From positions 3,901 through 67,900 of the forward strand of contig CAZQHU010000003.1 of the NCBI GenBank assembly GCA_964592785.1: DNA of 64,000 bases, written 5' to 3'. The notes under the pieces are model-generated. The model made no database searches. It saw only the letters and a list, made by a program, of their open reading frames with translations, and was not told the origin of the DNA. Positions 3,793-35,925 of the stretch are shown piece after piece. A program made the translations under genes and the position numbers. The stretch is from an uncultured Gammaproteobacteria bacterium. Lineage in GTDB: Bacteria > Patescibacteriota > Patescibacteriia > Magasanikbacterales > UBA922. Numbering within the stretch: the first letter of the stretch is position 1; every line of letters begins with the position of its first letter.

Positions 3793-4518
3793 TTATTGGG
3801 TTGAACCAGAGGGAGTGGTTTCTTTGAGATAATCCACTCCTGATTCCAAGGCTGAAGCTGAATCCAAAATCTGCTCTCCTCCAACTTGTCCACCGGTTTG
3901 TTCTGACAAAAGTTCACCAACCATTTTCATCAAAGTTTCATCATCAATCTTGCTCAATTCACTTTCAGAAATGCCACCAGAATCAATCAGGAGTTGTCTG
4001 ACCTTGGCTGGATCTGACAAAGTGTACAAAACATTGGAAATATCATCATTTTCTACACCAGTAAGCCCGGCTTGAGACAAGACATCCACTGGAGTTACAA
4101 AACCAGAAGCCACTGGAGAAGTCATAGGTTCCACTGGAAGATTGGGGATAGATTGAGCACTTTCACAAACTTGGCCCTTGGGACAAAGAGGATCAGAACC
4201 AGATGTTATTTCTTCTTTATCACTCATACCATCTGAATCTGAATCTGGTAAATAGGGGCTGGTAAAATAAAAATTTAATTCTTCCCAATCATTCAAGCCA
4301 TCGTGATCAGTATCAATACTTTGCAGACGAGCTTCTTGATTGTCCAAAAGTTCAGACAAACCACTATTGTCCGAAAGATGAATAGCAAAAGGATTATAAA
4401 TAGTATTACGCATCTGTAAGACTCCCAAACTAACCGCCAATAAACCAAAAACTAACAATAAGACAAAACCTGTCTTTTGTGTATTTGTAAGACCGTCTTT
4501 CTTCCGGCTATCAAGCAT
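3793..4518 (-). CDS. Membrane-anchored protein with two Ca-binding-type DxDxDG motifs (DTDHDGLNDWEE, DSDSDGMSDKEE; thrombospondin-3/dockerin-like); probably co-transcribed with the giant protein
   Basis: ORF track. N-terminal TM helix FVLLLVFGLLAVSLGVL. There is a 14-nt gap to the start of the giant ORF on the same strand. Confidence 0.55.
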   Translation of the reverse strand: MLDSRKKDGLTNTQKTGFVLLLVFGLLAVSLGVLQMRNTIYNPFAIHLSDNSGLSELLDNQEARLQSIDTDHDGLNDWEELNFYFTSPYLPDSDSDGMSDKEEITSGSDPLCPKGQVCESAQSIPNLPVEPMTSPVASGFVTPVDVLSQAGLTGVENDDISNVLYTLSDPAKVRQLLIDSGGISESELSKIDDETLMKMVGELLSEQTGGQVGGEQILDSASALESGVDYLKETTPSGSTQ

Positions 4519-4661: not shown

Positions 4662-5549
4662 TCACTTGATTCCCAAGTTTTTCAATTTCTCTATGATTCT
4701 TTTCCAATCATCTACAGCCAATTCTTCAGCCCTGATTTTTTCATTATTCAAAACATCTTTTAAAACATTTTTTACTTTTTCATTCTCAATTTTCAATCCA
4801 ACTGATAAATTTTTATGCAACTGTTTCCTCTTGTTTGCAAATCCAGCTCTCACTACTCTAAAAAACTCCTCATCACTAATCTTTTCCCTCCCCTCGTAGG
4901 GGAGGGAAGGGATGGGTTTTGCTTTATTGTTTTCATGTTTTAATGTTTTAATGTGTAAAATCGCACTATCCACTTTCGGACTGGGCCAAAAATTTCCTCG
5001 TGAAACAATATCCACAATTTTGGGCTCACTATAATATTGAACTGAAACTGCCAGTAAACTCATATCGCCAGGTTTTGAACAAATCCGTTCGGCCACTTCT
5101 TTTTGTACCATAATAGTAATTGATTCTGGTTTATTTTCCAATTCTAAAAGAGCGCGTAAAACATTGGAAGTAATTTGATAAGGAAGATTGGCTACAACTT
5201 TGTAATTTATAATTTGAAATTTGAAATTTGAAATTTGAGTGAGTGCATTTCCCCAAATGATTTCTAAATTTTTTAATTTCTTGATTTCTATTTCTTCTTG
5301 CCAATACTCCCTCAACTTTTTCTCAATTTCAAATGCTACTACTTGCCTCGCCTTTTCTGCCAGGGCAAAAGTAAGCACCCCAAAACCCGGCCCGATCTCG
5401 ATCACTGTATCAGTCTTAGCCACTCCCGCCGCCTCAATCATTTTTTTTATCGGCCAATCTTGAATAAGATAATTTTGACCATACTTCTTGCTGGGAGTAA
5501 GGTCGTATTTACTACAAAGAGATTTGAGGATTGTAGGAGTAAGGGACAT
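4662..5549 (-). CDS. rsmA: 16S rRNA (adenine1518/1519-N6)-dimethyltransferase RsmA/KsgA; contains an in-frame palindromic insert and a 7-nt x4 tandem repeat
   Basis: KsgA-like motifs (GQNYLI, EIGPGFGVLT, NLPY). Confidence 0.85.
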   Translation of the reverse strand: MSLTPTILKSLCSKYDLTPSKKYGQNYLIQDWPIKKMIEAAGVAKTDTVIEIGPGFGVLTFALAEKARQVVAFEIEKKLREYWQEEIEIKKLKNLEIIWGNALTQISNFKFQIINYKVVANLPYQITSNVLRALLELENKPESITIMVQKEVAERICSKPGDMSLLAVSVQYYSEPKIVDIVSRGNFWPSPKVDSAILHIKTLKHENNKAKPIPSLPYEGREKISDEEFFRVVRAGFANKRKQLHKNLSVGLKIENEKVKNVLKDVLNNEKIRAEELAVDDWKRIIEKLKNLGIK

Positions 5550-5658
5550 AGACAGAAAGAATTTGAGATTTTTAATTTAGAATTTAAAAACAATTTATAA
5601 TTTTAAAATTAATTAATTTAAAATTGTTTAAAAATTAAAAATTTTAAATTAAAAATTA

Positions 5659-6828
5659 TTACTCGGTCTTCAGTCCTGCACTCGTGTATCTGTTGGAAGC
5701 ATTCCACAGTAACCACCCGGCATCACTATATTTCTCCACCATATCTATCTGCTCTCTAATGCGTATACCATCTGAATAAATCGCCCCCATGTCAAATGCT
5801 TGAAGCCAAGGACGAACTTTGGCTCTTTTACCTTCAAAAGTTGGCAAACCTTTTTTCATGCCATTTTCAATAATCCGTCCGGCGATTTCAGCTGGGTTAT
5901 CGTGACCTAATGAATTCCAAGCATAGTGTGAAGGATACATCATCGGACAAATAAAATCTGCCGAGTCTACTGCATCTACCAAGCGCTGACCGATACGCAT
6001 ATCATCGGTTCTCTCCATCACATAGCCAAACATATCGAGCGATATCCAGGCTGGTTCGCGATCAAGTTTATGGCGCAGATAAGAATAAAAACGATGCATC
6101 ACTTCTTGACGCGATTCATCACCAATATTATAAACCACCAAACTCATGTTGCCGTCCGAAGGAAAACGCACATAATCAAAATTTATTTCATCAAACCCTA
6201 GACGAATAACTTCTTTGGCAATCGCCACATTATAATTCCAAACTTCCACTCGTGTCGGATCTACCCAAGACAAGCCTTTGTTATCTCGCCACAGACCGCC
6301 ATTTTTTGATTTGATGGCCCACTCAGGTTTTTTATTGGCCAGTAAAGGATCCTGAAAAACAGTCTGACGAGCAATAGTATAAATATTATTTTCATGTAAT
6401 TTTTTCAGTAAAGCTTTCAGATCTCCCAATTGATTGTACTCCGCCCCAAACTCTTCTACCCAAAGCAAATTACTATCATACAAAACCTTGCCAGAATAAT
6501 CCTTGATATCAATGACCACAGCATTCAATTCAGTTTTATTTATAAGATCAATTATTTGCTCCATTTTTTTAGCATTACCGGCTGAATATGCGGTCAAATA
6601 AATCCCTTTGACTGTTTGTAAATTGTTTTTTTCTCGCTTGGGCTGAAGATTGTAGGATGAATTATCTTGAGAAACGATCGCCAACTCTTGCGCTCGTGTA
6701 GTCCCAACCCATTGCCAACCAATCAACAAAAAAGCCATCATTCCGATGATCATTATAAAAATTAAAAATAAACGAGGATGGTTGGACATAAAATTAAAAA
6801 AATAAGAAACTAAGAAACAATTCCTCAA
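5659..6828 (-). CDS. Membrane-anchored putative glycoside hydrolase-like TIM-barrel protein (DUF4015-like)
   Basis: N-terminal TM segment followed by a block resembling DUF4015 (GIYLTAYSAG...VIDIKDYSGK...INFDYVRFPSDG). The family assignment is from memory, not a search. Confidence 0.5.
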   Translation of the reverse strand: MRNCFLVSYFFNFMSNHPRLFLIFIMIIGMMAFLLIGWQWVGTTRAQELAIVSQDNSSYNLQPKREKNNLQTVKGIYLTAYSAGNAKKMEQIIDLINKTELNAVVIDIKDYSGKVLYDSNLLWVEEFGAEYNQLGDLKALLKKLHENNIYTIARQTVFQDPLLANKKPEWAIKSKNGGLWRDNKGLSWVDPTRVEVWNYNVAIAKEVIRLGFDEINFDYVRFPSDGNMSLVVYNIGDESRQEVMHRFYSYLRHKLDREPAWISLDMFGYVMERTDDMRIGQRLVDAVDSADFICPMMYPSHYAWNSLGHDNPAEIAGRIIENGMKKGLPTFEGKRAKVRPWLQAFDMGAIYSDGIRIREQIDMVEKYSDAGWLLWNASNRYTSAGLKTE

Positions 6829-16012: not shown

Positions 16013-16732
16013 TCAAGATCGGTCCCAAAGATGATTGAACATTGCTTTTTCCATGTCAATTAGTTCTTTACTTTCAATTACTACACACACCAAATCACCA
16101 GTAAAAGAAAACATCGCTACTTTATTTTTCCAAATATATTTCACACCATGAAAAGAATAAACTGATGGAACAATTTTTACTTGTCGTAAATGTTTCTGCC
16201 CAAGAGCCTGCCTTTTCTTTGCCAGTTCGGATTCTTCCAAAATAACACGTAGAGGAATTTTATTTTTTATTCTTTTTTCTACAAATTTATGAAAAGATTC
16301 CAATTCCCTAAATAAATCGTCGGCAGATCCAAATGCCAAAAGAATATCTGCCTCATCCAAAATTTCTTCCAAAATTAATTTCATTTCATCTTTACCTTGA
16401 TAAAATCTCACAGTCGGTCTTTTGCGAAATTGCCCAGCAATCGCATTTAACTGCGGTAAAACATCACGTAAAATATTAACTTTGCTTTCAGCCAAACGTA
16501 CTATTTGTGCTGGATCCTCGGCTGAAAAATATTTTATTTTCTTTTTATTAAAAGTGGAAACAAAACCCTCATGTGACAAATGTTCCAAAATTTCATAAAC
16601 AGTGGAACGTGGCAACCCAGCTTTGGCGGATATTTTTACCACCGATGCCGAACCCAATTCTAAACAAGCCAAATATACTTTAGCTTGTTTTTCTGACAAA
16701 CCATAGGATTGGAGTATTTTAGACAGGTTCAT
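16013..16732 (-). CDS. TrmB-family HTH transcriptional regulator
   Basis: N-terminal TrmB-like HTH (LSEKQAKVYLACLELGSASVVKISAKAGLPRSTVYEILEHL). Confidence 0.6.
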   Translation of the reverse strand: MNLSKILQSYGLSEKQAKVYLACLELGSASVVKISAKAGLPRSTVYEILEHLSHEGFVSTFNKKKIKYFSAEDPAQIVRLAESKVNILRDVLPQLNAIAGQFRKRPTVRFYQGKDEMKLILEEILDEADILLAFGSADDLFRELESFHKFVEKRIKNKIPLRVILEESELAKKRQALGQKHLRQVKIVPSVYSFHGVKYIWKNKVAMFSFTGDLVCVVIESKELIDMEKAMFNHLWDRS

Positions 16733-16740
16733 ATTTTAAA

Positions 16741-17225
16741 TCCCCTCTAGAGAGGGGTGGCTCCGACGTCGCAGTCGGAGACGGGGTGTGTTACCGTTGG
16801 TTAGTGATATAATTTTCTATTGTATAAAGTACTGATTCAATATTTTTTCTTACTTCAGTTTCTGTAAATCTTAAAAATTTTAGGCCTTTATTTTCTAAAA
16901 ACTCTTGTCTCTGTTTATCGTAATCTGACTTCATATCATGACTAGCAAAACCATCTATTTCTATTGCTAACATTAATTTGGGGCAATAAAAGTCTACAAT
17001 ATAGTTGTGGATTGATTTTTGACGATGAAAGTCAAAACCCAACATTTGTTTATTTTTTAAATATTTCCAGAGTATTACTTCGCCTAGTGTGGAATGTTTG
17101 CGTAGTTCCCGGGCCTTTTGTTTTAATGATTGTTGGTAGTTAATAACTGGCATAATTTTGCAAACCACGGTCACACACCCCGCCCGCTCGAGCGGGCACC
17201 CCTCTCTAGAGGGGATTTTGTCGGT
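16741..17225. mobile_element. Putative mini mobile element: a DUF559 endonuclease gene flanked by about 55-bp structured terminal inverted repeats
   Basis: Left TIR (16742-16796): CCCCTCTAGAGAGGGGTG-[hairpin gctccgacgtcgcagtcggagac]-GGGGTGTGTTACCGTTGG. Right TIR (17163-17217, reverse complement): CCCCTCTAGAGAGGGGTG-[hairpin cccgctcgagcgggc]-GGGGTGTGTGACCGTGG. Confidence 0.6.
16791..17153 (-). CDS. DUF559 endonuclease-like protein (Vsr/restriction-endonuclease-like fold)
   Basis: GFDFHRQKSIHNYIVDFYCPKLMLAIEIDG...EFLENKGLKFLRF is typical DUF559. The ATG start MPVINYQQ was chosen; the track's GTG start lies inside the TIR. The stop codon is supplied by the inner end of the left TIR. Confidence 0.75.
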   Translation of the reverse strand: MPVINYQQSLKQKARELRKHSTLGEVILWKYLKNKQMLGFDFHRQKSIHNYIVDFYCPKLMLAIEIDGFASHDMKSDYDKQRQEFLENKGLKFLRFTETEVRKNIESVLYTIENYITNQR

Positions 17226-17390
17226 ATTTCCGACGTTTTTTTTATAGATAAATTATAGCATATTCAAGCTATTTTGTCAAGAGTGTTGATAACATTTAGA
17301 CAGAAATAGTGACAAGTTTTAAAAAATTTAATAAACTTTTCTATTCAGCTTAGGGCTGAATAAACGTTCCTTACAACGCAACCAAAAAGC

Positions 17391-17906
17391 ATGGAGGAAA
17401 CCATGGACAGAAACCAACTTCTCAAAAAGATCCAAACAAAGCTTCAAGAAGAAAGAAGCAAAAAAGAAAAAAGGGCTTTGTGGTTGAAATTGTTCAAGGC
17501 TTGTCGATGCCACCGAACTGATTTCATAGATCCAGAATATTTTCCCATCCATGATGAAGAAGGCGAATTCACCGAAAGAGACATACGCCCATATGTTGAG
17601 GAGTATGCCTTCCTCAATCCAGTCACTGGCTATGAAGCCGTTGAACAACTTCTAAAAGGAGGATATTATCTGCTTGAGATGAGGGACGGCCTACTCTACA
17701 TCGGACAGAAGCCCGAAGCAATTGAAAAGCATGAGCTGATAATCATCGGAGCGGTACGCGAAACTGATGATTACATGGCAGTCCCTATTTTCCGTACATC
17801 CAAGATCTTCAGAAGGCGCATAGCTGATTACTATTTCCTCCACTACACTTTCGACACCAACTGTCGCTTTTTGGTCTTCAAAGACAGGACCAGAACTAAT
17901 CCGTAG
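17391..17906 (+). CDS. Hypothetical protein, about 45% GC; possible cassette g
   Basis: GGAGG lies 4 nt upstream of the second ATG (17403). GC-rich palindromic mini-hairpins follow the stop. Confidence 0.5.
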   Translation: MEETMDRNQLLKKIQTKLQEERSKKEKRALWLKLFKACRCHRTDFIDPEYFPIHDEEGEFTERDIRPYVEEYAFLNPVTGYEAVEQLLKGGYYLLEMRDGLLYIGQKPEAIEKHELIIIGAVRETDDYMAVPIFRTSKIFRRRIADYYFLHYTFDTNCRFLVFKDRTRTNP

Positions 17907-18138
17907 CCCTCCACCCCGGCTGGCAGGGCCGTTCTCTCTGCCATTCCCACTCACCCCCCTTAATAAAGGGGGGCGAGGGGGGATGTTGACCAATATCCCT
18001 CCTAACCTCCCTTTACTAAGGGAGGAACCATGACCATCAAAAAACTCCCCCAACCTCTTAGTAAGAGGGGGACAATAAAACCGCCCTCACGGACGGTTTT
18101 AACTTATTAAACTTAGTTACTTAGTCAACTTAAAAAAC

Positions 18139-31641: not shown

Positions 31642-33099
31642 ATGAACTGGTTCAAAAAATATTACCCTCTTCTTATCATTATTCTACTTGGCCTAATACT
31701 CCGTCTTTTTGTAATAATTAAGTATGGTTCATTCTGGGATGACGAAATGTTCAGCTTTGTTTTTAGTCAAAAATCCTGGACAGAAAGTTTTGTTTATTGG
31801 CTCTATGAAACCAACCCGCCTCTGCACTTGTTGTTTTTGAAAATTTGGTTTTATTTTTTACCGGCTAGCGAATTTTTCGCCAGATTACCCAGTCTCTTAT
31901 TTGCTCTCGCCACCATACCTCTCGTCTATTTACTGGGAAAAAATTGGCAAGGAAAAATGACCGGCTATATCACCGCTTTTTATCTAGCTCTTCATCCTTA
32001 CCATATCTTTTGGTCAGCTACTGCCAGGACTTATACCCTAACAATTTTTTTAACTACCGGCGCAGTTTATTTTTTTTATAAAATATTTTTTCTGGAAGAA
32101 AAAAATAGAAAAAATTATTTGGGTCTGGCCATTTTCAACCTACTCTCACTATTATCACACTTATCCGCTAGCTCAATCATACTCACACAAATTTTGTTAT
32201 TGCTCTACAAAAAAACAAATTTCAAACTCTGGTGGCAGATAAATATTACCCCTCTAATTCTCGCTGGCTCTTGGCTAATCTCTTCGCTTTGGTTGAAAAT
32301 GTCTAATCTAAATAAATCGTGGTTTTTCAATTTGAATCATGATCTAGATACATTTCTCACTCCTCTATCTAATATTTTCCTCGGCGTCTACCCACCAAAA
32401 ATGACTTTACTTTTCATTATTCCCCTACTAATTATTTTGTTTATTTTTCTCAGTAAAAAAATTAAAGAAAAAGCAGAAAAAACTTTTGTCATCTTGGCTA
32501 TCGCTCTCCTACCGATGTTTATTTCTTTTTTCTTAAATCTCTGGCATATCAAATTTTTCCTAGTCAGTTTGCCTTTTTGGCTCTTATTGGTAGCTGGAGC
32601 TTTTGCAGAAGTTTTGAAAAACAAAAAATTAATTTTTATAGCCTTGGGATTATTTTGTAGTAGTGGACTTATTTTTTTATGGTCTTTCTTGCCACTGACA
32701 AACTGGCAACCACTGCAAAAATATCTCACTACAAATTTTAATCCAGCCAAAAAACAAGCTCTGGTTTATAACAACTACATATTGGACCCACAAATAGAAA
32801 AGTACTTGAAACCGCCACAAGAAAACATGCCTTTTGTAATAGAATCAGAAAAAAATTGGGAAGATTGGGCAGTAAAAAGAAATTATCTTTATATTAAATA
32901 CTCCCAAGAACAGCTAACAAATTGGCTATCAAAAAATAATTTATTTGCCAATCAAGAAATCTTTCTTATTCAGGGCGAATATGATTACATGACCAATTTA
33001 AATAAATTACTGGAAAAAAATAATTATATTTTAGAGCAACCTGCTTGGCGTTTGCCTATTCTCGGTCGTTATTATCTCTATCACTATGTCAAAAATTGA
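31642..33099 (+). CDS. GT39/GT83-family glycosyltransferase (ArnT/PMT-like), polytopic
   Basis: N-terminal DDE-containing loop, more than 10 TM helices, and the family architecture. Confidence 0.65.
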   Translation: MNWFKKYYPLLIIILLGLILRLFVIIKYGSFWDDEMFSFVFSQKSWTESFVYWLYETNPPLHLLFLKIWFYFLPASEFFARLPSLLFALATIPLVYLLGKNWQGKMTGYITAFYLALHPYHIFWSATARTYTLTIFLTTGAVYFFYKIFFLEEKNRKNYLGLAIFNLLSLLSHLSASSIILTQILLLLYKKTNFKLWWQINITPLILAGSWLISSLWLKMSNLNKSWFFNLNHDLDTFLTPLSNIFLGVYPPKMTLLFIIPLLIILFIFLSKKIKEKAEKTFVILAIALLPMFISFFLNLWHIKFFLVSLPFWLLLVAGAFAEVLKNKKLIFIALGLFCSSGLIFLWSFLPLTNWQPLQKYLTTNFNPAKKQALVYNNYILDPQIEKYLKPPQENMPFVIESEKNWEDWAVKRNYLYIKYSQEQLTNWLSKNNLFANQEIFLIQGEYDYMTNLNKLLEKNNYILEQPAWRLPILGRYYLYHYVKN

Positions 33100-34006
33100 T
33101 CAGCGTGAAATTGAGTTAATTAAAGCATTTGTGTTGAAAAAACCACGCGAATTTTTTATTGCCCACCCGGAGTACCAAGTTAGCAAGTTAGCAAGTGAAC
33201 AAGTGAATAAGTTGATTAAAAAACGTACTCGTGGTATTCCACTCGCTTATTTACTTGGCAAAAAAGAATTTTTTGGGTTGAATTTTACAGTAAATAAAAA
33301 TGTTTTGATTCCTCGCCCAGAGACAGAACTGATGGTAGAAAAAGTTTTACAAAAAATCAAGAATTCAAAAAACCAAGAAATTATTTTAATTGATATTGGA
33401 ACTGGTACTGGATGTATTCCCATTTCAATCATAAAAACAATTAACCCCACCCTACCCTCCCCTACAAGGGGAGGGAAAGGGAGAGGTTTCGCCGTCTTTG
33501 CCACGGACATCTCCCAACCAGCTTTGTCTGTCGCCAAAAAAAACGCCAAAAAACATAATGTAAAAATAAAATTCCTTCACGGCAACTTGCTTGAACCATT
33601 TCTCTGTCATCCTGAATTTATTTCAGGATCTTTCCCAAAATCAAACCTGCTAAAAAGTATATCTGGAGAAAAGATGCTGAAACAAGTTCAGCATGACATC
33701 ATCATCACCGCCAACCTCCCCTATCTTACACCTCAACAACTTAAACAAGAACCCTCAATAAAACACGAACCTCACCTCGCCCTCGTCGCTGGCAAAGATG
33801 GACTAAAATACTACCGAGAACTTCTTAAACAAATTAATATATTGACTTCGGACTACAGACTACAGACTACAGTTTTTTGCGAAATAAATCCGGAACAAAC
33901 AAAAAATATAAAACTCCTTACTAAAAAAATTCTTCCCCAAGCCAAAATAACCCTCCACCAAGATCTGGCTGGAAAAAATAGAGTGGTGGAGATAATTCCC
34001 CTCTAG
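33086..34006 (+). CDS. prmC: Release factor glutamine N5-methyltransferase PrmC/HemK; contains two in-frame palindromic-element insertions
   Basis: SAM motif IDIGTGTG and NLPY (a variant of NPPY). Classic prfA...prmC linkage. Confidence 0.85.
   Translation: MSKIDQREIELIKAFVLKKPREFFIAHPEYQVSKLASEQVNKLIKKRTRGIPLAYLLGKKEFFGLNFTVNKNVLIPRPETELMVEKVLQKIKNSKNQEIILIDIGTGTGCIPISIIKTINPTLPSPTRGGKGRGFAVFATDISQPALSVAKKNAKKHNVKIKFLHGNLLEPFLCHPEFISGSFPKSNLLKSISGEKMLKQVQHDIIITANLPYLTPQQLKQEPSIKHEPHLALVAGKDGLKYYRELLKQINILTSDYRLQTTVFCEINPEQTKNIKLLTKKILPQAKITLHQDLAGKNRVVEIIPL
33606..33698. repeat. Two-hairpin MITE-like element, copy 2; 93 nt, inserted in frame in prmC
   Basis: It encodes LCHPEFISGSFPKSNLLKSISGEKMLKQVQHD between the SAM-binding region and the NLPY motif. 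Confidence 0.75.
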
Positions 34007-34150
34007 AGAGGGGTGCCCGCTCAAGCGGGTGGGGTGTGTTACAATAGCAAAAATTAAAAACAACGGTCACACACCCCGTCTGCCTCCCGCCTGCCATGCC
34101 TGGCACTGGCGGGCAGGGCGAAGGCATACACCCCTCTCCAGAGGGGATCG
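34001..34150. mobile_element. Cargo-less TIR pair (MITE) of the DUF559-element family
   Basis: CCCCTCTAGAGAGGGGTG-hairpin-GGGGTGTGTTAC, an 18-nt spacer, then CGGTCACACACCCC-long hairpin-CACCCCTCTCCAGAGGGG. Confidence 0.6.
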
Positions 34151-34164
34151 CCTCTTGACAAACC

Positions 34165-34193
34165 CATAAAAATAAGCTATAATGCCCTGTTCT
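34165..34193 (+). promoter_or_regulatory. Consensus promoter TTGACA-17-TATAAT of cassette d
   Basis: TTGACAaacccataaaaataagcTATAAT. Confidence 0.65.
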
Positions 34194-34393
34194 TTGAAAA
34201 TTTTCAAACGGCTTATAAATTAGCCAATTTTTGACTAATGTCTAGGCCGTTTGAGGCTTAGGGAACAGAAAAACTACTGTTGAAGGAGTGGCCTGTATAG
34301 GGGGCAACTACCGAGACCTTTTTGAAGGTCATTACAGCAAGTTTCTGTTTTCCCGACTTCCTGTTCCGCCCGAGGCGGACAAGAGGAGGTACC

Positions 34394-35161
34394 ATGCCCA
34401 GTTTCTCCAACAAGTTCCTGAAAGTGGAGAGCGACCGCTCTCCGGTGGGACAGCGGACCCGTCTGCTGGTCCTCTGGTCATACTTCATGGCCATTCTCCT
34501 GGGTGGCCTGTGGCTGATGCCCAGCTCGATGGCAGTGGCGAACCTGATCCTGATGGGTTTGAACACCCTCATCTTCGCCCGCTGGGTGTCCAAGAATGGG
34601 GTGGATTACTACCCCAAGAAGGAAAACAGAAAATACCCCCCGTTTCTTCCGAGATGGGGAGAGGGTACGCGTCGGTACTACTTCGTACCGGCGATCATGA
34701 CCAGCACGATCTGGTCGGCAGTGTTTTTCGGCTGGAACACCTGGTTCAGCGAAAACTTGTTGTGGATTGTTTTGGGTGTTATGTGCATCCTTCTCGCCAT
34801 CTTTCTGGTCCCCTACCTGTGGGGTAAGAGGGCATCCAGGAAAAGCAAGAGATTCATGGCCCAGCAAGACGAGGAGAGACGAAAGCAGAAGGAGATCGAC
34901 GAGCTGATTCAAGCGGCGATGGGAAGGAAGGAACTCGAGATTTACGAGAGGGAGAAAGAGTTCCTTCGTGACCTGGCAGTAATCATCGCCAACTTCCACT
35001 ACGAAAAGGGAAGAAAGCCCTCGAAGAGGGACGCCGAACTCCGGCAGAAACTCGAGGCGATCCTCGAGTACTTCGTCGGCCCGAGCGAGGCCGAGGCCAT
35101 GGTCGCCGAGGAGCTCTACCGCCTCACTCGTGAGGCGAAGAAGGCCACGGTGGCCACTTAG
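34394..35161 (+). CDS. GC-rich (about 57%) membrane protein of 255 aa: about 4 TM helices plus a charged coiled-coil C-terminus (cassette d)
   Basis: GAGGAGG lies 5 nt upstream of ATG 34394. The overlapping track ORFs 34258-34999 on other frames are GC artefacts. gttcgttcttt follows the stop. Confidence 0.6.
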   Translation: MPSFSNKFLKVESDRSPVGQRTRLLVLWSYFMAILLGGLWLMPSSMAVANLILMGLNTLIFARWVSKNGVDYYPKKENRKYPPFLPRWGEGTRRYYFVPAIMTSTIWSAVFFGWNTWFSENLLWIVLGVMCILLAIFLVPYLWGKRASRKSKRFMAQQDEERRKQKEIDELIQAAMGRKELEIYEREKEFLRDLAVIIANFHYEKGRKPSKRDAELRQKLEAILEYFVGPSEAEAMVAEELYRLTREAKKATVAT

Positions 35162-35180
35162 ACACTGTTCGTTCTTTAGA

Positions 35181-35232
35181 GGGGCGCCGACCGGTTGAGT
35201 TGAGATTTACTTCTCCTCCCGGTCGGCGCCCC
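35181..35232 (+). repeat. Conserved 3' hairpin of cassette d (14-bp stem GGGGCGCCGACCGG / CCGGTCGGCGCCCC)
   Basis: Cassette e carries GTCCGACCGG/CCGGTCGGAC, a compensatory variant, and shares the loop start ttgagtt. Confidence 0.7.
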
Positions 35233-35239
35233 GATGTAA

Positions 35240-35306
35240 TCAAGTGTTTGTAAAATATTTTGTAAATAGTTGAAAATAAAAAATCCGCTGATAAGGCGGT
35301 TTTTTT
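35240..35306 (+). repeat. Conserved cassette 3' module, copy B, plus terminator
   Basis: tcaagtgtttgtaaaatattttgtaaatagttgaaaataaaaaat-CCGCTGataaGGCGG-ttttttt. Confidence 0.8.
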
Positions 35307-35341
35307 GTTTGTCATCCCTTTTGTAAAAGGTAAGATGGGTA

Positions 35342-35370
35342 TTGACAAAAACACAAAAATAAGCCAATAT
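35342..35370 (+). promoter_or_regulatory. Promoter TTGACA-17-CAATAT of cassette e
   Basis: Shares the spacer motif aaaataagc with the promoter at 34165. Confidence 0.55.
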
Positions 35371-35408
35371 TGTTATAGGAAATTCGTCATCTACAGGAGG
35401 TTTTCTCA

Positions 35409-35747
35409 ATGGCAAATAATTATCACTTGTCTGGTCCTTTTTCCTTCGGTATCCTATCTCCAAAGAACAAGGAGGAAAAGTACAGTATTTTCTTCCTGTC
35501 AATTCTTAGGGGCGACGAAGTGCACCGAGCCTATCTCTGCTACTCCAAGCAACAAGTTCGAAACGTGTTTGACCAGTTCAGACCTTGTATTGCACCAGAC
35601 GAACTCAAGATAGCGGAAGATTTCGTAACCCATAACCAGCACGTACCCGAATTCTCGAACCACAAGATGAGGGAATACAACGGACGAGAGGCCGAAGTGT
35701 TCACCGCGCTCATGTCCACTGGGCACTACGCAAGCATTGCCAACTGA
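35409..35747 (+). CDS. GC-rich small protein of 112 aa (cassette e)
   Basis: AGGAGG lies 8 nt upstream of the ATG. A tttcgttctttag motif and a hairpin follow the stop. Confidence 0.55.
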   Translation: MANNYHLSGPFSFGILSPKNKEEKYSIFFLSILRGDEVHRAYLCYSKQQVRNVFDQFRPCIAPDELKIAEDFVTHNQHVPEFSNHKMREYNGREAEVFTALMSTGHYASIAN

Positions 35748-35792
35748 CCATCCGCCCGAGTCAGGGCAAACCAAATTGTTTCGTTCTTTAGC

Positions 35793-35841
35793 GGGTCCGA
35801 CCGGTTGAGTTAATGCCTCCTTGGCATTCTCCCGGTCGGAC
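35793..35841 (+). repeat. Conserved 3' hairpin of cassette e
   Basis: GTCCGACCGG-ttgagtt...-CCGGTCGGAC. Confidence 0.65.
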
Positions 35842-35847
35842 AATCCA

Positions 35848-35925
35848 ATCAAATGTTTGTAAAAATTATTTTGTAAATAGTTGAGAATAAAAAATCACTT
35901 AATAATCTAAGTGATTTTTTATTTT
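35848..35925 (+). repeat. Conserved cassette 3' module, copy C, plus terminator
   Basis: atcaaatgtttgtaaaaattattttgtaaatagttgagaataaaaaat-CACTTaataatctAAGTG-tttttt. Confidence 0.8.

Follow-up and report, generated by a model that had tools for sequence, protein, structure and literature searches.

A DUF559 nuclease gene between inverted two-hairpin units: a probable member of a widespread family of selfish DNA

A 64,000-nucleotide stretch of DNA (hereafter the window; positions 3,901 to 67,900 of contig CAZQHU010000003.1, assembly GCA_964592785.1, from an uncultured bacterium placed in the Magasanikbacterales of the Patescibacteriota) carries a gene for a DUF559 endonuclease that is enclosed by two inverted copies of a two-hairpin unit (16738-17218), as found both by reading the sequence and with a repeat finder. 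This 473-bp element lies between a hairpin in the leader of a TrmB-family gene and the ATG of that gene. Units of the same family, some with the gene and some without it, are found in bacteria of more than a dozen phyla, and DUF559 is the sole non-host protein family that recurs across loci within 800 nt of them. We consider it probable, at roughly 60%, that the locus is a member of a widespread selfish-DNA family in which a DUF559 nuclease gene is carried between inverted structured units. The literature searched (DUF559 together with repeats, miniature inverted-repeat transposable elements (MITEs) or homing; variants of the REPIN/RAYT system discussed below; the sequences themselves; BoxC) did not describe this association.

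Anatomy and insertion site of the element

The outer arms of the element (16738-16759 and 17197-17218; AAATCCCCTCTAGAGAGGGGTG and CACCCCTCTCTAGAGGGGATTT) are 22 nt long and 100% complementary, its inner arms (16782-16802 and 17162-17182) are 21 nt long and 86% complementary according to the repeat finder, and on each side a different perfect hairpin lies between outer and inner arm. The left outer arm consists of AAAT, a 16-bp pseudopalindrome termed O (CCCCTCT-AG-AGAGGGG, 16742-16757) and TG; it is followed by the left variable hairpin (16760-16782, gctccgac-gtcgca-gtcggagac) and by the left inner arm I (16783-16800, GGGGTGTGTTACCGTTGG), which contains the TAA stop codon of the DUF559 gene at 16791-16793. 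The right inner arm (17164-17181, ACCACGGTCACACACCCC) is complementary to the left one and lies, on the gene strand, 10 nt upstream of the DUF559 ATG (20 nt when counted from the GGGGTGTGT core). It is joined by the right variable hairpin (17182-17197, GCCCGCTCGAGCGGGC; like its left counterpart, delimited by sequence and fold) to the right outer arm, which is made up of CA, O (CCCCTCTCTAGAGGGG, 17199-17214) and ATTT. The original prediction had correctly described a DUF559 gene between structured inverted repeats, with internal hairpins that differ from each other and yet are perfect, and with a stop codon supplied by the inner end of the left repeat; it had also found the right locus, but its limits of 16741 and 17225 have to be replaced by about 16738/16742 and 17214/17218.

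When up to three mismatches are allowed, the window has four copies of the 18-mer CCCCTCTAGAGAGGGGTG, where 100 shuffles give an expectation of 0.00, and three matches to the pattern of the inner arm (0.06 expected). These repeats also delimit a mini-element of 149 bp without an open reading frame (ORF) at 33998-34146, organized as O, a hairpin, I (34031-34039), an AT-rich loop, the inverted inner arm (34069-34077), a 51-nt hairpin and the inverted O. Its outer and inner arms are those of the full element, its two hairpins differ from those of the full copy, and its left O provides the stop codon of a PrmC-like gene (33086-34006). Beyond the arms, the mini-element and the full element have sub-terminal bases in common (GACCGTtGTTT at one end, GTAACAC at the opposite end), so that the mini-element looks derived from a full copy by internal deletion. 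In both copies, either strand is predicted to fold as a four-way junction composed of an outer stem, a hairpin, a central stem with the ORF or the loop, and a second hairpin (z-scores -7.3 to -8.2).

The DUF559 gene (16791-17153, minus strand) is the only ORF of the element and has no promoter of its own there. It starts with ATG and encodes a protein of 120 amino acids that is predicted to be an endonuclease with the Vsr fold, of the EDxHD type. Pfam, NCBIfam and Protein Data Bank searches all return DUF559 or Vsr-like endonucleases (PF04480, E = 6e-32; PDB entry 3HRL, an 'endonuclease-like protein', E = 5e-12). The E-x-D...H-D residues are intact, with E65, D67 and H72 being invariant in an alignment of the clade and D73 being seen in the window protein only. 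At E <= 1e-3 the DUF559 family comprises 20,274 cluster representatives (50% identity); some database proteins consist of two or three DUF559 domains within one predicted ORF. A PADLOC search gave only weak matches to nuclease domains, which leaves membership in a defence system unsupported.

At the locus, a host promoter (TTGACA-17-TATAAT, 17252-17280, minus strand) with 12 of 12 matches to its hexamers and a TG preceding the -10 hexamer reads through the element into the TrmB-family gene. The gene starts at 16732, 9 nt from the end of the element, where the minus strand reads GAGGGGATTTAAAATATG; read on this strand, the left outer arm closes the element ahead of the start codon, and it is plausible from the sequence that its GAGGGG serves as the Shine-Dalgarno motif of the gene. 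No motif of the GAGGGG type precedes the TrmB ATG in relatives from the Magasanikbacteria. The nearest TrmB homologues, 67-74% identical, come from Candidatus Magasanikbacteria, and the gene order NusA, TrmB, YidC, PRC is kept on their contigs. Three of these relatives have the promoter (TTGACA-N17-TAtAAT) and a CGTCGG..CCGAC hairpin with the ATG following within 6-60 nt and no element in between. The same hairpin is present in the window at 17219-17235, where it marks the host side of the insertion point. Promoter and hairpin being shared by element-free relatives, the element is an insertion in the 5' leader of the TrmB-family gene; the host promoter reads through it, and it is co-directional with host transcription. 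That this leader hairpin, CGTCGG-loop-CCGAC, is kept across Magasanikbacteria with TrmB proteins 70-72% identical is an observation in its own right; it could be an operator or a leader structure of a TrmB/YidC operon.

Since even the nearest TrmB relative is only 74% identical, the empty site is one at family level only. A strain-level empty site for the window locus was not found, the exact DUF559 and TrmB proteins being present only on short Logan contigs. These contigs show that the locus recurs in independent samples; they are either occupied or end inside a unit, as do all contigs with the identical TrmB, and breaks at this place are expected of a dispersed repeat. Elsewhere, element copies occupy many unrelated intergenic sites, elements whose proteins are 92-98% identical sit in different flanks, and a BLAST search with joined flanks for empty sites of all fetched loci gave one case between paralogues and one case of a boundary. 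The flanks of 41 bounded copies read A-N-T|..|A-N-T, a weak inverted symmetry. The proposal that repeat-bounded DUF559 genes are mobile units is supported by repeats that are not unique to the locus, by the same bracket in other phyla and by element-free TrmB leaders in relatives.

Between the element and NusA lies orf171 (17391-17906, plus strand), which matches no family and has no exact copy on record. In one of the three element-free relatives the corresponding position is taken by a gene for a periplasmic binding protein, which makes that side of the locus variable, too.

The unit family and its association with DUF559

Across 185,579 species-representative genomes, an exact scan for CCCCTCTNGAGAGGGGTG-N10-40-GGGGTGTG yielded at least 119 stretches with this 26-nt pattern, distributed over many phyla, so that the terminal sequence, present also in the ORF-less copy of the window, is anything but unique. 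The matches listed include Verrucomicrobiota, Ignavibacteria, Pelosinus, Zixibacteria, Glassbacteria, Nitrospinota, Aminicenantes, Bacteroidota and Gemmatimonadota, Peribacteria and Parcubacteria of the candidate phyla radiation, two archaeal bins and one isolate, Aliifodinibius salipaludis. Metagenome-assembled genomes make up 118 of the 119 matches listed, and this, together with the Logan contigs that break inside the unit, might suggest chance or an assembly artefact. Such an origin has a negligible probability and is already refuted by the present results: no chance matches are expected in the window, the same locus is found in independent samples, the unit occurs in complete long-read chromosomes and in an isolate, its hairpins are variable and covary, and related forms exist in cultured cyanobacteria, Deinococcus and E. 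coli. Complete genomes with canonical units include CP096135.1, OZ252051.1, JAWLBI010000001.1 and Aliifodinibius salipaludis WN023. The canonical unit was absent from the PLSDB plasmids and had five matches in IMG/VR, and plasmids and viruses are thus no evident vector.

The canonical unit reads T-CCCCTC-TNGA-GAGGGG-TG-[hairpin]-GGGGTGTG-T and is composed of the 16-bp C-tract/G-tract pseudopalindrome O (T-CCCCTCT-NG-AGAGGGG), a linker and the G-rich arm I (GGGGTGTGT). The linker is either short (ATTTA or TTA) or a GC hairpin of variable sequence, and the hairpin-forming unit has a length of 45-55 nt. Flanking T residues are nearly invariant, upstream in 195 of 204 and downstream in 191 of 204 cases. 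The boundary is exact, as is seen in a Gemmatimonadales bin of which two contigs match as far as GGGGTGTGT and differ from there on. Inverted doublets come in two kinds: in one, the inner arms face across DUF559 or a short spacer; in the other, it is the outer palindromes that face each other. Within the variable hairpin, 15 cells with double changes stand against 3.9 in shuffles (none of 500 shuffles was as high), and these compensatory changes indicate that pairing of the hairpin is under selection. Among the 84 triloops in variable hairpins, 53 are GNA triloops, which are typical of stable DNA mini-hairpins rather than being RNA tetraloops.

Of 155 units, 111 are intergenic and 44 lie inside ORFs, although spurious ORFs in GC-rich genomes have probably raised the second number; relative to the genes around them, the 155 units show no constant position or orientation. 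In an Ignavibacteria contig, a paralogous sorting domain of the type IX secretion system (T9SS) has 12 nt in place of the 36-nt unit. Here and on four further contigs from Ignavibacteria (L006, L034, L066, L077 and L094), the unit stands in frame in one loop of T9SS C-terminal domains (..FxIP-LLRGVSEGRGV..). Tandem arrays of units and of whole DUF559 elements with a conserved 16-nt spacer are seen as well (contig L012 of Lacunisphaera, 1900-2400 and 5650-6500; P0121 and P0128). Together with the database proteins of two or three DUF559 domains, they suggest that gene callers read through arrays and GC-rich units.

A stable fold predicted for either strand (z = -7 to -8), in a leader that lies downstream of a host promoter and is predicted to be transcribed, could also mean that the element operates at the RNA level, as a four-way-junction RNA with the ORF in a loop, that is, as an RNase III intervening sequence, a ribozyme or something intron-like, and a 22-bp outer stem would indeed be a substrate of RNase III. 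We regard this as very improbable. A palindrome folds equally on both strands, so that the fold scores cannot separate RNA from DNA; units stand in either orientation to genes, those in frame are evidently translated, and the loops are GNA triloops and not GNRA or UNCG tetraloops. No Rfam family matches the element either: in Rfam 15, run over the window and both loci with gathering and E-value cut-offs, its best match was anti-hemB with 32 bits against a gathering score of 49.5, a generic pattern of hairpin, hairpin and terminator, whereas the only match at gathering score in the window was a tRNA-Leu elsewhere, with no intron family and, at the loci, neither tRNA nor tmRNA.

Where units and DUF559 occur together, their arrangement is fixed: a unit, 20-90 nt, the ATG, a stop codon overlapping the complementary inner arm, and the inverted unit. 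Against bias from searching with DNA, 80 DUF559 loci from Joint Genome Institute metagenomes were chosen by protein patterns only, and 63 of these had enough flanking sequence. In 52 of the 63 a perfect C-tract palindrome stands beside DUF559, on both sides in 41 and on one side in 11, with 11 loci having it on neither side; control windows on the same contigs contained the palindrome in 16 of 738 cases (2.2%). Many of the protein-selected copies lack the variable hairpin and consist of O-ATTTA-I or O-TTA-I only, O has an oriented centre, which at either end reads TG and then CG in the direction of the unit, and sub-clades have variant palindromes (CCCTCCT, CCCCCTT, CCCCTCC). In 54 of 69 loci the gene points the same way as its upstream neighbour (p = 3e-6), and in 45 of 62 the same way as the downstream one, which suggests dependence on host transcription. 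A mini-element on the Lacunisphaera contig retains the 3' end of the ORF, and ORF-less doublets are, as far as their sequences tell, deletion derivatives of gene-bearing elements.

The same flank architecture with other sequences is seen in isolates, around DUF559 genes that tblastn found in plasmid records and whose products share about 40% identity with the window protein. In Pseudanabaena, doublets of TCCCCCCAGAATTGGGGGG-CTA-GGGGGGC stand on both sides of the gene, and the doublet is present at seven places in that plasmid; doublets of this type also occur in pSYSA and pSYSM of Synechocystis 6803, and Picosynechococcus PCC 7002 has similar flanks. In Deinococcus psychrotolerans the gene lies between paaD and paaZ within 56-nt inverted repeats that are 98% complementary, Sphingomonas has CCCCTCCCGC-CTGC-GGGAGGGG twice per side of the gene, and the Azospirillum unit reads ..GGGGGAGGG-TTA-GGGTGGGGGC. 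As read from these flanks, different DUF559 clades carry different unit sequences in the same architecture.

In E. coli K-12 the DUF559 gene is ycjD (b1289; 1351039-1351828 for the locus). Behind it come a degenerate unit, 40 nt left over from the 3' end of ycjD itself, and CCCCTCGCCCCTCTGGGGAGAGGGTTAGGGTGAGGGG. The degenerate unit is a partial BoxC, and ycjD is not cleanly bracketed on both sides. The BoxC repeats of E. coli are 56 bp long and present in about 22-32 copies, and BoxC is said to have been first described beside envM/fabI, the gene adjoining ycjD. That CCCCTCGCCCCTCTGGGGAGAGGGTTAGGGTGAGGGG is a BoxC repeat follows from the members of this family given in PMC2267715 (Additional file 1). 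BoxC has the architecture of the units, i.e. a C-rich arm, a loop, a G-rich arm, TTA and a second G-rich arm, and in unit orientation it reads CCCCTCGCCCC-TTTG-GGGGAGAGGG-TTA-GGGTGAGGGG, to be compared with CCCCTCT-TG-AGAGGGG-ATTTA-GGGGTGTGT for the canonical unit. It differs in that its hairpin is imperfect and that the sequence of the window unit does not match it; only the E. coli unit beside ycjD does. All of the 5426 complete E. coli genomes contain BoxC sequence, with a median of 16 places in each, while ycjD, a single-copy gene, is present in 3378 of the 5426 and absent from 38%. No paper linking BoxC to ycjD or DUF559 was found in the literature searched. The ycjD-less E. coli Nissle was considered as an empty site and rejected, as the region upstream of fabI has there, in the place of both ycjD and BoxC, a TetR/AcrR regulator and a resistance-nodulation-division (RND) adaptor. 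In one enterotoxigenic E. coli strain the ycjD locus contains an IS1, with two annotated DUF559 features under the match.

Units that are mostly intergenic, that end in a Shine-Dalgarno-like 3' half 9 nt before the TrmB ATG, that suggest constraint by their conservation across phyla and that accompany a single-copy ycjD in E. coli could also be structural or regulatory assets of the host, e.g. mRNA-stabilizing or terminator-like hairpins, sites for nucleoid proteins or translation signals, with DUF559 as their domesticated maintainer and the bracket as a relic. A domesticated maintenance role of this kind has been proposed for RAYTs. For the units we think it rather unlikely, because their position and orientation relative to neighbouring genes are not fixed, their hairpins are not followed by a U-tract, some stand in frame within coding regions (T9SS C-terminal domains, PrmC), the TrmB leaders of close relatives have no element, and the distribution is patchy.

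Possible modes of spread and relation to known systems

Whereas the element and its distribution are a matter of observation, its mechanism of mobility we infer. Selfish spread of DUF559 elements, which we favour, may proceed as follows. A DUF559 dimer would recognize its own units, most likely the O pseudopalindrome or the hairpin form of it, by analogy with the homodimeric EDxHD enzyme I-Bth0305I, and would nick or cut there. Host repair or replication could then copy units into other sites and, between doublets, the gene itself, such that the gene would spread by homing-like conversion between copies of the repeat and the unit by short-patch copying of a self-pairing sequence. Overall this would resemble either the repetitive extragenic palindromes (REPs) and their inverted doublets (REPINs) with the associated tyrosine transposases (RAYTs), or a homing endonuclease that uses dispersed repeats as homing sites. 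As the fold can only hydrolyse DNA, spread has to go via host repair or replication, and a hydrolytic fold, missing target duplications and the one case in which a unit replaces a short stretch, in the Ignavibacteria contig, fit copying during repair and not the cut-and-paste of a transposase.

The likeness to REP/REPIN-RAYT systems lies in short hairpin units dispersed between genes as singlets and inverted doublets, in an enzyme gene bracketed by inverted units (cf. PMC3116915 and PMC3733652), in unit sequences that differ by enzyme clade, and in a gene that is single-copy in E. coli. Here, however, the enzyme is a Vsr-fold PD-(D/E)XK hydrolase and not a Y1 HUH transposase, the GTAG/CGTC tag of REPs is missing from units that start with A-N-T-CCCC and end with GGGGTGTGT, the unit comprises two modules plus a G-rich tail, and it is shared across phyla, whereas REPs are lineage-specific; gene-bearing copies can, moreover, be tandem or multi-copy. 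With insertion sequences (IS) and MITEs the element has in common its terminal inverted repeats, the coexistence of gene-bearing and internally deleted ORF-less forms with the same ends, its multiple copies, and insertion polymorphism between related species. Unlike these, it makes no target-site duplication, encodes no transposase of the DDE, serine, tyrosine or HUH type and has no recurrent recombinase family around its units; half-elements, i.e. single units with exact boundaries, dominate, and the ends are structured modules instead of simple repeats. With neither an HUH nor a DDE enzyme, no GTAG tag and no target duplication, the element belongs to neither group. IS200/IS605 elements differ by their TnpA (HUH) gene and by an orientation bias tied to the lagging-strand template, of which the units show none relative to GC skew (42:45, a weak test), and integron cassettes by single attC sites in direct orientation and a nearby IntI integrase, in contrast to units that are inverted around the gene and lack a recurrent recombinase nearby. 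Rickettsia palindromic elements are likewise small palindromes that stand in frame in coding genes and are translated, as are units in T9SS C-terminal domains and PrmC; they are confined to one lineage, and no nuclease gene is known to be associated with them.

Closest to the protein are the EDxHD homing endonucleases and Vsr, which have the same nuclease fold and the E-x-D...H-D residues. DUF559-type nucleases have been grouped in one clade with I-Bth0305I (PMC3424549), a homodimer with a Vsr-fold nuclease domain that cuts at the centre of a 14-bp pseudopalindromic core (PMC3239194), which compares with the 16-bp pseudopalindrome of the O module. Yet the window protein has 120 amino acids and no large DNA-binding domain, and the element is located in no intron or intein, is not tied to one conserved host gene, and carries structured inverted repeats of its own; unlike Vsr, it has no methyltransferase partner. 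By fold and residues the enzyme is placed with the EDxHD homing endonucleases, the element being neither intron- or intein-borne nor site-bound.

In the most serious of the rival explanations, DUF559 would be a free-standing homing endonuclease gene that parasitizes independent BoxC-like repeats, homing into the central loop of doublets, while the units would spread by another route in which it has no share. ORF-less doublets and full elements have identical ends, single units greatly exceed gene-bearing copies, BoxC is found in all E. coli genomes even though ycjD is absent from 38%, and the nuclease domain, besides its shared clade with I-Bth0305I, has a weak match to phage homing-endonuclease families, all of which is in line with such parasitism. 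On the other hand, minis keep 3' remnants of the ORF (in Lacunisphaera and in E. coli) and thus resemble deletion derivatives rather than naive targets. Unit sequence varies with the DUF559 clade between canonical, cyanobacterial, Deinococcus, Sphingomonas and E. coli forms, as would be expected if the protein reads the unit, and no other enzyme recurs near the units. On balance, parasitism of pre-existing repeats appears unlikely.

Several findings weigh against units and gene spreading as one selfish family. No transposition event has been observed, and no two identical full copies at different sites within one genome were seen. The search for flanking direct repeats, which the original prediction had proposed, was negative, with direct 3-mers in 3 of the 41 bounded copies against 3.97 expected, and unit orientation was unrelated to local GC skew (42 versus 45, p = 0.83) in what is a weak test. 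A PD-(D/E)XK hydrolase is incapable of strand transfer, which leaves insertion without homology, e.g. into the TrmB leader, unexplained. Most copies are single units, far outnumbering bounded elements, and BoxC in all E. coli genomes with ycjD in only part of them means that units persist without the gene; the model does not yet account for either. It does not account, either, for the recurrence of the same 26 nt across phyla: proteins of the clade are 45-60% identical to each other and their units are nearly identical, for which mobility alone is no explanation, although, as the scan demanded an exact pattern, the conservation of single units is in part an effect of selection by the search.

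If the nuclease does drive the spread of its units, the life-style of REPs and RAYTs would have been invented a second time, independently, on another fold and with no need for a transposase. A more specific and quite tentative possibility is that such elements represent a transposase-free class of mobile DNA, with a minimal Vsr-fold (EDxHD) nuclease as its sole protein and a BoxC-like unit of about 40 nt as the cognate site. The enzyme would nick at or opposite a unit, which would be extruded in heteroduplex or single-stranded DNA and copied by short-patch repair, the gene being copied between doublets. This, if true, would explain the sporadic multi-copy distribution of DUF559, the origin of BoxC along with the function of YcjD, and the in-frame hairpin insertions in uncultured bacteria. 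For DUF559 as such, selfish spread offers a concrete hypothesis of function, namely a nuclease that reads the units flanking its own gene, with one clade tied to a structured repeat and apparently several distant ones, too. E. coli YcjD and BoxC may provide a cultivable model. In practical terms, units break short-read assemblies, extend predicted ORFs and add translated segments of 12-13 residues, as in PrmC and T9SS sorting domains.

Variant units and neighbouring genes in the window

Besides the full element and the mini-element, the window contains variant units with a C-tract hairpin, a short linker and a G-rich tail. A mini-doublet read from the sequence at 17954-18025, beside orf171 and NusA, has the form CCCCCCTTAATAAAGGGGGG-cga-GGGGGGATGTT / ATCCCTCC-taa-CCTCCCTTTACTAAGGGAGG. 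A single unit on the plus strand at 33455-33488 (CCCTCCCC-TACAA-GGGGAGGG-AAA-GGGAGAGGTT) stands in frame in the PrmC-like ORF, where it encodes ..PSPTRGGKGRGF.. within the methyltransferase, and another one, also on the plus strand, is found at 4886-4918 (CCCTCCCC-TCGTA-GGGGAGGG-AA-GGGATGGGTT). With variants of like architecture in a single window, the genome carries several sub-families.

Directly beside the mini-element lie two GC-rich ORFs (34322-35161 and 35409-35747), with a GC content of 0.5-0.62 against a background of about 0.38. Pfam, PADLOC and PHROG gave no significant match to either of them, PHROG having a single marginal one (E = 0.008). At the 3' side of both stands the same block, roughly 130 nt long (gttcgttctttag..ccgaccggttgagtt..cccggtcgg..tgtttgtaaaa(t)attttgtaaatagttga(a/g)aataaaaaatc), with a terminator hairpin behind it, and the stretch 34150-35920 looks like two tandem foreign cassettes. 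A further GC-rich ORF in this AT-rich genome (44152-45006, minus strand, 284 amino acids, in a region with a GC content of 0.55) is located just after gyrB and is probably foreign as well.

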